Of a DNA stretch of 64,000 nucleotides, positions 27,191-30,100 are shown in pieces. The notes beneath the pieces were generated by a model, which was not told where the DNA came from, searched no databases, and saw nothing but the letters and a program-made list of their open reading frames with translations. Position 1 is the stretch's first letter; each line of letters starts with the position of its first letter. Location of the stretch: NCBI GenBank assembly GCA_964505325.1, contig CAZDHT010000001.1, positions 10,430 through 74,429 of the forward strand, written 5' to 3'. Origin of the DNA: an uncultured Planctomycetota bacterium (GTDB lineage: Bacteria; Planctomycetota; PUPC01). Position numbers and translations under genes: made by a program.

Positions 27191-30100
27191 ATGGACGTCC
27201 GTGACTACAAGAAGGTCGGCGACGCGGTAGACGTGCCGAACCTGGTCGCGATCCAGACCGATTCTTATCGGGAGTTTCTCCAAGCGGACACGACACCGGT
27301 GAAGCAACCAAGGGTGTCGCCGGAAAAGCGGATAGATTCGTTTGCGGCAGTCTTCGAAGGACTTTACAAGAAGGCAATGCGCATGAAACCTAAGGAAGCT
27401 GCTCTCTTTGAGGCCGCGCAAGTAGCTGGCCAAGAGGCGGCCAAACTCCTAAGGAAGGGCGAGCTCACCAACAAAGCGCATGAGAAACTGTGGGCTGCTG
27501 TTGTCGCGAGCGCTAGGTGGAAGTATGTTGCAGACCCTCGACCTGGCGTTTGGCAAAAAGAGGAAAGCCGGCTAAGAAAAAACGATATCACGGAAATCGC
27601 CAAAGCACTTCGCGCGGCTCTACAGTCTTTAAGCGAAGGCCGTGCAGACGAAGCCATCGCAGTAATGGCTGGCTCGGATGGGAAGGGGGGGGGGTTCGAG
27701 GGACTTCGCAGTGGGGTCGCCTCTGCGATTCTCCGGTTTCTAGACGACAAGAATGCAGCCATAATCGACTTCCACGCGTGGAATCTAGCCAAACATGTTT
27801 TGCAGGGACAAAGCGGGCAGAAGCCTGCCAATTCTGTGTACACTCCTCAGGAGTACGCCCTTTACCTAGGTTGGCTACGCCAGATAGCGGATCGTCTCCC
27901 CAAGAAACGGTCTGTCTCTGATATTGATCTGGTGTTGTACTGTGCGGATAAGGATAACTTTTGGAAACCTGAAGATGAGGGTGGCGGTTCTCGGCGAGGG
28001 CGCAAGAACCGCGGGCTGGAGGGCATCTTCCGCGAGACGTTCCCCATCCTCAGCTACGACGGCAGCATGCGCCTCGAGTACGTCTCCTACGCGCTCGGCC
28101 GCCCGCGCTACACGCCGGACGAATGCCGCAAGCTCGGCCTGACCTACGGCCGCCCGCTCACCATCACCGTCCGCCTCGTCGGCCCCGAGACCATCGAGGA
28201 GGCCGTCTACCTGGGCGACATGCCCATCATGATGGGCGGCGGCGAGCTCATCATCAACGGCGCCGAACGCGTCATTGTCTCGCAGCTCCACCGCTCGCCC
28301 GGCGTCGACTTCGAGGTCACCACCCACGCCACCGGCAAGAAGCTCCACTCCTGCCGCATCATCCCCGAGCGCGGCAGTTGGATCGAACTCTCCATCTCCA
28401 AGAAGGACGTCCTCTCCGTCAAGATCGACCAGAGCGGCAAGTTCGCCGCCACCACCCTCCTCCGCGCCGTCGAGGACAAATACGGCACCACCGAAGACCT
28501 GCTCCGGCTGTTCTACGACACCAAGGTCGTCACCCTGAAGAGCAAGCCGGACTACAAGAAGCTGGTGGGTGCCGTCGCCGTCGGCGCACTGGTCAACGCG
28601 TCGACCGGAGAGATTATCGTGGAGAGCGGCGGCATCATCGACGAGACTGCGATCGAGTTCATCGAGGCGTCCTCGCTCGACAGCCTCGAGATCATTCCCG
28701 ACATCGCTGACCCGCTCATCCTCAACACCATCGCCGAAGACCGCGCCCACACCTACCGGGAGGCCCTGGAGCGCATCTACAAGCGCCTCCGGCCCGGCAA
28801 CCCGTTCCAGCTTCAGCGGGCGCAGACGCTGTTCCACGAGCGTTTCTTCGACTCCAACCGGTACCGCCTCGGCCGCGTCGGCCGGTTCCGCCTCAACCGC
28901 AAGTTCAACCAGACGGTCAGCGAAAAGGAAATGACCCTCCGGCCGGACGACCTGGTCAACGCGTTCAAGTACCTCATTCAACTCCGCGAGAGCGGCCAGA
29001 CCCAGGCCGCCGGGGTCACCTCGGGCATCGACGACATCGACCACCTGGGCAACCGCCGGGTCCGCACGCTCGACGAGCTGGCCGGCGACGAGGTCCGCAA
29101 GGGCCTGCTCAAGCTCCGCCGCACCGCCCAAGAACGCATGAGCATGAAAGACCCCCAGGACCTCACGCCACGGGTGCTCATCAACCCGAGGACCGTGTCG
29201 TCCGCCATCGACTACTTCTTCGGGCGGAGCGAGCTCTCGCAGGTCGTCGACCAGGTCAACCCGCTGGCGCAGCTCACCCACGAGCGGCGCCTGAGCGCCC
29301 TGGGGCCCGGCGGCCTCAACCGGAAGCGCGCCGGCTTCGAGGTCCGCGACGTCCACACCTCGCACTACGGCCGCATCTGCCCGATCGAGACCCCCGAAGG
29401 CACCAACATCGGTCTCATCGTCTCGCTCTCCATCTTCGCCGAAATCGACGACTACGGCTTCCTCGTCACCCCCTACCGCAAGGTCAGGGAGGGCCGGGTG
29501 AGCAGCGAGGTCGAGCGCCTCCGGGCGGACCAGGAGGACGAATGCACCATCGCGCCCGCCGACGCGGTGGACGAGAAGGGCCGCCTGGCGCCGGAGGTGA
29601 TGGCGCGGGCCAAGGGCGAGTTCAAAATGGTTCCCGCCAAGGAGATCGACTACATCGACGTCTCGCCCAAGCAACTGGTCGGCATTTCCGCCGCCCTCAT
29701 CCCGTTCCTCGAGCACAACGACGCCAACCGGGCGCTGATGGGCTCCAACATGCAGCGGCAGGCGGTCCCCCTCGTCACCAGCGAGCCGCCGCTCATCGGC
29801 ACCGGGATGGAGGGGTACGTGGCGCGGAACTCGGGCATGGTCGTGGTCGCCGAAGAGAGCGGCACCGTCCGGCGCGTCACCGCCGATGACATCACCGTCG
29901 ACAACCGCATCTACCCGCTGCGGAAGTTCGTCGGCCTCAGCGCGCGCACCTGCCTCAACCAGAAACCCATCGTCCGCGAGGGCCAGCGCGTCAAGACAGG
30001 CGAGGTCATCGCCGACGGCGCCGCCACCAAGGACGGCCGGCTCGCCCTCGGCAAGAACGTGCTGGTTGCCTTCATGCCGTTCGACGGATACAACTACGAG

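Follow-up and report, generated by a model that had tools for sequence, protein, structure and literature searches.

The RNA polymerase (RNAP) beta subunit gene rpoB of an uncultured Planctomycetota bacterium carries a segment of foreign DNA close to its 5' end. The gene was analysed in a window of 64 kb (65.5% GC) of contig CAZDHT010000001.1 (assembly GCA_964505325.1); all coordinates given below are positions in this window on the forward (+) strand. The genes are arranged in the order tRNA-tuf-secE-nusG-rplKAJL-rpoB-rpoC, and an orphan hicB antitoxin gene is located in the rplL-rpoB spacer, resulting in the syntenic order rplKAJL-(hicB)-rpoB-rpoC. RpoB is encoded by a single open reading frame (27113-31603), in which every Rpb2 Pfam domain was found. 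The ATG at 27191, which is preceded by GGAG and is the same in the sister contig L088 described below, is likely the start codon. The coding sequence then extends from 27191 to 31603 and encodes a protein of 1470 amino acids including the insert; the native leader upstream of it (27110-27190) is common to the window and L088. The inserted segment comprises 696 nt or 232 codons (27305-28000), starts with the amino acids QPRVSPEKR and lies between the native residues K38 and R39; in the filled protein, it corresponds to residues Q39-G270. A 2-nt GC microhomology makes the boundary shift by 1 nt, and a placement at 27306-28001 is equally valid.

An in-frame insertion of around 240 amino acids in the N-terminus of RpoB had been proposed in a preliminary description of this DNA, and the comparison with related genes confirmed it. 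In the window, 240 residues separate the SYREFLQAD block from the next conserved RpoB block. Related Planctomycetota rpoB loci were retrieved (80 in total), and both flanking blocks could be located in 62 of them; in all 62, the insertion is absent and the equivalent gap is 7-9 residues long, nearly always 8. The closest genome representatives, with 82-86% identity, also have the short loop. The exact ends of the insert were defined by comparing the filled allele of the window with the empty allele of the metagenome contig Ga0114922_10004744 (L088), which was recovered by a JGI metagenome DNA-pattern scan with a 29-mer located just 3' of the insert. L088 shares 97.2% nucleotide identity with the window in the rpoB core, 94% in rplA-rplL and 91-95% in rpoC. 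Its protein reads ADTAPDK|RKSRGLEG, compared to ADTTPVK[232 aa]RKNRGLEG in the window; at the DNA level, GCG CCC GAC AAG CGC AAG AGC CGC GGG CTG GAG (A-P-D-K-R-K-S-R-G-L-E) in L088 corresponds to ACA CCG GTG AAG [696 nt] CGC AAG AAC CGC GGG CTG GAG in the window, and the junction sequence of the empty site is CCGGTGAAGCGCAAGAAC. Compared to L088, no target bases were lost. Neither a target-site duplication at the junctions nor terminal inverted repeats bordering the insert were found, and the segment does not qualify as an insertion sequence, a transposon or a miniature inverted-repeat transposable element. The reading frame is maintained at the right junction, after which rpoB is again 98-100% identical to L088. 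Downstream of the insert, 47 synonymous and 29 non-synonymous codon differences were counted in 1080 codons, which is consistent with continued purifying selection on this part of rpoB. The 30 nt left of the insert contain 12 mismatches to L088. The idea that the donor piece already carried an rpoB flank was judged unlikely, because the loop is the most variable N-terminal part of RpoB in all relatives and because the loop of the window is nearer to the clade consensus than that of L088. As a side observation, the rpoB gene of L088 is frameshifted near codon 1121 (around positions 5400-5847 of L088) and runs into a spurious C-terminus, probably due to an indel error of the metagenome contig.

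The composition of the insert clearly differs from that of its surroundings. GC content at third codon positions (GC3) is 0.55 in the insert compared to 0.92 in the rest of rpoB and 0.91 in rpoC, and CTA accounts for 33% of the leucine codons in the insert and for 0% in the reference genes, in agreement with the atypical codon usage that had been noted. The 1-kb bin 27001-28000 has the lowest GC content of all bins in the window; the low GC content described for the insert was correct, but the figure of about 50% has to be corrected to 54.3%, compared to 65.9% in the rest of rpoB. The low-GC stretch already begins at around position 26816, upstream of rpoB, because the orphan hicB gene (GC3 0.57) is located there, which had escaped notice in the preliminary description. 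In the preliminary description, the composition was taken as a sign of a foreign or recent origin. A foreign origin is supported; however, atypical composition cannot serve as a clock, since the GC3 of hicB is still 0.57 in relatives with an rpoB identity of only 84%. The insertion is regarded as recent because L088 holds an empty site while its rpoB is 97% identical. Contrary to what had been suggested, the segment is therefore not lineage-specific; the insertion is later than the split from the L088 sister lineage and is of strain or species level.

Proteins related to the insert are rare. A word-indexed search of 5.8 billion proteins with the insert gave zero matches. An exhaustive HMMER scan of 1.84 billion representative proteins yielded four hits, two of which are small stand-alone homologues, namely P0003 (194 amino acids) and P0004 (151 amino acids); the other two, P0001 and P0002, are repeat proteins with spurious multi-stretch matches and were discarded. 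An alignment-based profile search added the homologues P0005 and P0006. An RpoB with a similar segment was not found among the 1.84 billion representative proteins. The insert can be aligned with these stand-alone homologues over nearly the full length with 22-27% identity and 14 invariant columns. Every family-invariant residue is present in the insert, and the domain is intact over its full length. In essence, the insert corresponds to an entire stand-alone protein from a rare family of the Ogg2-like HhH-GPD type. The only Pfam family that was hit is PF21790 ('OGG-like'), which is matched by all five family members (the insert and P0003 to P0006), each below the threshold; the insert reaches 21.9 bits (E 1.6e-4) at a gathering cut-off of 27. 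The C-terminal half of the insert also weakly matches NCBIfam NF002305 with 12.8 bits at a cut-off of 183. Zero matches were obtained with insert peptides in a JGI metagenome scan, with the family alignment in a viral-contig scan, with the insert in tblastn searches of phage and plasmid collections, and with the PADLOC models, and PDB sequence searches with the insert and the family profile gave chance matches only, e.g., S20 and ClpB. The PHROGs family phrog_24538, whose function is unknown, is matched well by P0003 and P0006 and weakly by the insert, and a fold search of BFVD gave two weak matches, both of which are uncharacterised phage proteins. P0006 is encoded by a low-GC gene (0.46) located beside genes for an enoyl-CoA hydratase and a biotin carboxylase, which flank its two-gene pair. 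In this pair, the P0006 gene overlaps the gene of a 119-amino-acid nucleotidyltransferase (MNT-like) by 4 nt (positions 528-1513 of contig L081), and the arrangement resembles a two-gene toxin-antitoxin-like cassette in which the Ogg-like protein stands where a HEPN toxin would usually be encoded. The genomic context of P0006 fits a donor pool of mobile accessory cassettes.

An AlphaFold2 (AF2) model based on the five-sequence alignment predicts an all-alpha structure of 10 helices (pLDDT 79, pTM 0.78), the termini of which are disordered (residues 1-5 and 227-240 of the 240-amino-acid query). The folded Ogg2-like HhH-GPD domain is predicted to span 27320-27952, corresponding to residues 11-221 counted from 27290, with low-confidence linkers on either side (27305-27319 and 27953-28000). 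HhH-GPD glycosylases are the best structural matches of the model; an independent Foldseek search (E 0.017) gave MjOgg as the top match followed by hOGG1, and the predicted model has the two-lobed all-alpha architecture of the HhH-GPD fold. The segment was initially described as a predicted-helical stretch rich in Ala, Lys, Glu and Leu; the helical character agrees with the model, and the insert contains 14.7% Ala, 9.1% Lys and 9.1% Leu, but it is a complete Ogg2-like HhH-GPD domain and not an anonymous segment. Using hhalign, the family alignment (A3) was compared with the C-terminal region of MjOgg, whose sequence had been checked against 3fhf_A and 3knt_A before the alignment. This revealed a degenerate helix-hairpin-helix (HhH) motif at 27698-27742, which is followed around 20 residues later by a conserved Asp, with AIID present in both the insert and MjOgg. 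The Asp in AIIDFHAW (27767-27769) is aligned with the catalytic D147 of MjOgg and is invariant in the five-member family. At the column of the catalytic Lys of the Ogg2 enzymes (K129 of MjOgg), the insert has a Gly (27713-27715) and the homologues have R, R, R and P. Since the Schiff-base Lys is replaced by Gly, the domain is no Ogg-type bifunctional glycosylase/apurinic-apyrimidinic lyase. The insert is basic, with an isoelectric point of 9.5 and a net charge of +8. Compared to the Ogg2 glycosylases Tm1821 (3n0u) and MjOgg (3knt/3fhf), with which it shares 13-15% identity, the insert thus differs by the exchange of Lys for Gly, by the loss of the second Gly of the HhH hairpin and by being embedded in RpoB rather than free-standing.

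The position of the insertion on the polymerase can be derived from homologous subunits. Without the insert, residues 1-142 of RpoB are alignable to beta of Thermus thermophilus, Taq and Escherichia coli, and residues 1-57 align one-to-one and gap-free with T. thermophilus beta, which therefore places the site at K38|R39 of the Thermus subunit. This position falls inside the crystallised beta1-lobe fragments 3mlq and 4xax. The insertion is thus located in a short, sequence-variable loop of the beta1-lobe (protrusion), whose equivalent in E. coli beta lies at around residues 43-47. The beta1-lobe consists of residues 18-138 and 333-392 of Taq beta, is equivalent to the Rpb2 protrusion and lies near the upstream bubble; it is also the docking site of the RID domains of CarD and Mfd (TRCF) (PMC4593161). 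Planctomycetes are listed as lacking CarD in a survey of this protein (PMC4593161). The RID modules and the insert would be alike in placing a DNA-contacting or repair-linked module on the beta1-lobe beside the upstream edge of the bubble; however, CarD and Mfd are separate proteins that bind non-covalently through a Tudor-like fold, whereas the insert is a covalent part of beta and has an unrelated fold. Insertions in beta have been catalogued at five sites (uD2 N/C, uD3 N, uD5 C, uD4 C) and mostly adopt the BEAN fold (PMC11515920). Like the lineage-specific insertions of beta, such as SI1 and SI2 of E. coli and the BEAN insertions (Lane & Darst numbering), the insert is an independently folding in-frame domain in a surface loop that leaves the core intact. 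In contrast to these, it is located in the N-terminal domain at K38|R39, which is none of the five catalogued sites, it is predicted to be an all-alpha HhH-GPD domain rather than a BEAN or sandwich-barrel domain, and it is found in one population with foreign codon usage, whereas the known insertions are phylum- or class-wide. Its novelty among the beta insertions thus lies in its site, its fold, its age and its demonstrable horizontal origin, and the suggestion that it is a novel accessory domain of RNAP is supported.

A complete foreign domain of the HhH-GPD fold is covalently contained within the beta1-lobe loop of the rpoB gene of the operon. After the split from the L088 sister lineage, 696 nt of foreign DNA entered the chromosomal rpoB in-frame between codons 38 and 39. 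The absence of a target duplication and of inverted repeats, together with a microhomology of only 2 nt, suggests that this capture might have been an illegitimate, microhomology-mediated event, and the source might have been a pool of small mobile cassettes of the toxin-antitoxin or defence type. Because rpoB is essential, only an in-frame, stop-free and self-folding insert would have survived. The domain would be displayed on flexible linkers (QPRVSP on the N-terminal side) near the upstream fork, where it may bind or interrogate DNA without lyase chemistry while retaining an HhH-like motif and the catalytic Asp. It had been speculated that the insert serves as a docking surface for a regulator, but nothing indicates such a role; the fold, the charge of +8 and the retained HhH motif and Asp point to DNA as the partner. 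By analogy, its role would most likely be that of a DNA-binding or base-interrogating module tethered to RNAP. The best functional analogues may be the inactivated EndoIII/Ogg (PF21790-like) domains, which act as sensors of modified (hypermodified) bases in the END antiphage nucleases (bioRxiv 10.1101/2025.03.31.646159). Such a sensor and the insert would both consist of a glycosylase fold devoid of lyase chemistry that serves as a DNA-reading module of the enzyme to which it is fused; the insert differs in that its partner is RpoB instead of a PLD, PD-DExK or McrB effector and in that the catalytic Asp is kept. Taken as a whole, the reading that is tentatively preferred here, with a chance that comes close to even, is a recent and tolerated horizontal capture through which RNAP acquired a tethered, basic module for DNA binding or base sensing.

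Several points weigh against this reading. At the sequence level, the links to the family are weak (21.9 of the 27 bits required for PF21790; hhalign E 0.0027 with a probability of 11%; Foldseek E 0.017), the fold assignment relies mainly on the AF2 model from a five-sequence alignment, and the hairpin is degenerate, with GLRSG in place of GhG. The proximity of the loop to DNA is taken from literature on the whole beta1-lobe and not on the K38|R39 loop itself. Evidence for the right junction and for the latter half of the insert comes from the window alone, and an exact-match protein look-up returned no other record of the RpoB (with either of its two possible starts) or the RpoC of the window. 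Only one insert sequence is available in total, and selection on the insert is thus not measurable. As the view is limited to 64 kb, a second, uninterrupted rpoB may exist elsewhere in the genome. Moreover, the load of rare codons and the frameshift-prone run of 10 G residues (G10) resemble an unoptimised passenger more than an adapted module.

A strong rival explanation is therefore that the insert is a pure passenger, i.e., that it rides along in a permissive surface loop with a neutral or slightly harmful effect, adds nothing to transcription, repair or defence and is kept since its precise removal is improbable; we assign it an appreciable chance, of the order of one case in three. The insert is unique among the 1.84 billion representative proteins and the approximately 62 relatives, its unadapted codons (33% CTA for Leu) are found in a highly expressed essential gene, slippage in the G10 tract would be lethal, and the region has already collected selfish cassettes (hicB/hicA). 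On the other hand, the domain is full-length with all family-invariant residues kept, its fold is confidently predicted, and several libraries contain the haplotype with 100% identity, although each of these observations is still compatible with neutrality.

A more specific version of the favoured capture scenario is improbable: the domain could be a base reader built into RNAP, which sits on the beta1-lobe by the upstream fork and interrogates the transcribed DNA. In analogy to known systems, it might either flag or excise lesions, which would amount to a covalent form of transcription-coupled base excision repair, or it might detect phage DNA with hypermodified bases and cause its transcription to stall or abort, thereby acting as an immune sensor like the iEndoIII of END. 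Still somewhat less credible is an active monofunctional DNA glycosylase on RNAP that carries out transcription-coupled base excision near the bubble. The nearest solved fold is that of an 8-oxoG glycosylase, the catalytic Asp is invariant in the family, and the insertion lies in the domain that binds the repair-coupling factor Mfd; monofunctional HhH-GPD enzymes such as MutY and AlkA likewise lack the Lys. However, no family member passes any curated glycosylase threshold, the characterised PF21790-type relatives are catalytically inactive sensors, and the stand-alone homologues are found in toxin-antitoxin-like cassettes and not in repair operons.

It is highly unlikely that the insert is an assembly chimera that is present in no cell. 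The absence of the RpoB and RpoC proteins of the window from other records, the right junction known from the window alone and the breaks of several contigs within or beside the region would fit a chimera. However, four contigs from JGI and Logan assemblies made from other libraries are 100% identical to the window from hicB through the left junction and reach 245-390 nt into the insert: L094 matches 26122-27549, L095 matches 26183-27550, L097 matches 26737-27694 and L099 matches 26731-27684. They span rplL or hicB, the leader, the 5' end of rpoB, the left junction and part of the insert. Two or more libraries, with two assembly pipelines applied to each, are probably the source of these contigs, so that the left junction is contained in the reads and was not introduced by a single assembler. 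Furthermore, both junctions are in-frame, and all 232 codons are open and align in the rpoB frame to the homologues. HicB and RplL proteins identical to those of the window were found on 12 contigs each, mostly the same contigs of the JGI and Logan assemblies. The polymerase with the insert is evidently still functional, given that an identical haplotype was met repeatedly in metagenome libraries; it is carried by SRR9710561, SRR9706179, SRR9710542, SRR8556609, SRR9700687 and SRR9700688 and by JGI 3300031255, 3300031624, 3300031359 and 3300031698. Of the contig breaks, those that directly follow hicB (27107-27217) are located where a real haplotype, the hicA variant L084, branches off; two breaks within the insert sit at the G10 tract, and a further one lies at 27549/27550. 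L094 and L095, which derive from two assembly pipelines, both end at this position, beside the A-rich stretch GGCAAAAAGAGGAAAG; this could be due to a strain variant or a drop in coverage.

A self-removing element, be it an intein, a group I or II intron or a translational bypass, which would leave the beta subunit in its normal form, can be practically dismissed. Inteins and introns are classical in-frame or precise insertions in essential genes, and the insert resembles inteins in being large, foreign and in-frame, in interrupting an essential, conserved gene and in having relatives with an empty allele. However, the insert starts with Q and ends with RRG|R, no Cys, Ser or Thr is found at the N-terminal junction and no His-Asn precedes the C-terminal junction, no Pfam match to a Hint domain and no homing endonuclease domain were detected, and Rfam did not report an intron or any other match in the region 26300-28300 at E<=1, in line with the earlier statement that the segment is not an intein. 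Moreover, the rpoB frame encodes the glycosylase-fold domain, and 696 nt far exceeds any translational bypass known to us. Thus, the insert is expected to stay in the mature protein.

The G10 tract at 27685-27694 (AAG GGG GGG GGG) encodes D-G-K-G-G-G-F, as had been stated, and thereby the Gly-rich loop directly in front of the HhH motif. No homopolymer in the window is longer; a run of nine C residues at 16539-16547 is the second-longest. In the preliminary description, the tract was considered unexpected in an essential gene, which did not withstand closer analysis: 72% of mononucleotide shuffles of the window contain a G or C run of at least 10, and therefore its length is not beyond chance by composition, and the homologues are also Gly-rich at the loop that it encodes (GSGGLHG, GKPGGLFG). 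Slippage to G9 would lead to a stop at codon 184 and slippage to G11 to a stop at codon 244; as RpoB is truncated either way, the tract is a hazard rather than a plausible switch. L099 ends at 27684 and L097 at 27694, exactly at the borders of the tract. Homopolymer sequencing errors are a more likely reason for this than real length heterogeneity, because frameshifted cells should be inviable. A phase-variation switch for the domain or for rpoB, for which the length of the run and the two contig ends at its borders could be cited, has hardly any chance of being true, since both slippage products would destroy RpoB, the Gly loop specified by the run is conserved among the homologues, its length is expected from the composition and sequencing errors explain the contig breaks equally well.

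To our knowledge, the lineage-specific insertions of RNAP are ancient, and their origins have hitherto been inferred from deep comparisons only. The insertion described here has been caught young, with filled and empty alleles that are 3% apart in rpoB and a donor family that still exists as stand-alone genes. Its codon usage is also still foreign. It is direct evidence that a whole foreign domain can be captured in a single step even by the most conserved of essential enzymes and that the beta1 loop at K38|R39 is a site that was not previously known to tolerate insertions. This permissive loop could also be used for engineered fusions of domains into bacterial RNAP. In the literature, no natural fusion of RpoB and a glycosylase was found, only synthetic fusions of T7 RNAP and deaminases. 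A functional domain would make this, as far as could be found, the first case in nature of a DNA reader with a glycosylase fold in covalent linkage with a cellular RNAP, and would have a bearing on transcription-coupled base repair and on the sensing of modified phage DNA.

The spacer between rplL and rpoB, which precedes the insert, is variable in itself. The orphan hicB gene (26885-27109) encodes an antitoxin of 74 amino acids and represents foreign DNA next to, but outside, the insert; it has 6446 homologues, several of which bear the name HicB in the source records. A hicA gene is missing from the window but occurs in L084 to L087; the hicB gene of the window thus lacks the partner of a HicAB pair. 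In L085, L086 and L087, hicB-hicA is found at the same spacer (positions 6001-6638 of L085) and is followed by a remnant copy of around 40 nt of the native rplL 3' end. The hicB-hicA cassette appears to have integrated at the end of rplL, thereby bringing its own rplL terminus. L084 (positions 1336-2011) belongs to the same population as the window (99.4% identical upstream), contains hicA and continues with a different downstream sequence, and L088 is devoid of hicB. The presence of hicA and hicB varies among near-identical contigs, and the rplL-rpoB spacer is a polymorphic hot spot for small selfish cassettes. The idea that hicB and the insert arrived as one block was rejected: the 81-nt leader and the 5' end of rpoB between them are native and common to L088, and hicB is older, as it is found in relatives with 84% rpoB identity. 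Because of the native sequence between them, hicB and the insert are therefore separate events.

Some minor features of the region and the window were also observed. The leaders of hicB (26816-26884) and rpoB (27110-27190) are diverged copies, which both end with GGAGTGC...ATG and contain direct repeats of 25-29 nt with 76-83% identity. The motif TCCGCAATCCGA is present three times, with one copy within hicB. In L088, the reverse-complement motif (GGATTGCGGATT, repeated) directly follows rplL; this points to a long-range stem that bridges the spacer. ARAGORN called a tRNA-Ser(gga) at 33361-33451 on the reverse strand, antisense within rpoC; the Rfam tRNA model did not report it, and it is probably a false positive. 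A palindromic repeat of around 75 nt, which resembles repetitive extragenic palindromic elements (GGTGGGGCAGGCATTCCTGCCTGCCC...ATGTCCGCCCCACC), occurs at three intergenic sites (around 12107-12170, 24957-25040 and 36318-36380), including sites after rplK and after rpoC, and at positions 1-85 of L088; one of the copies carries an internal insertion of 42 nt.

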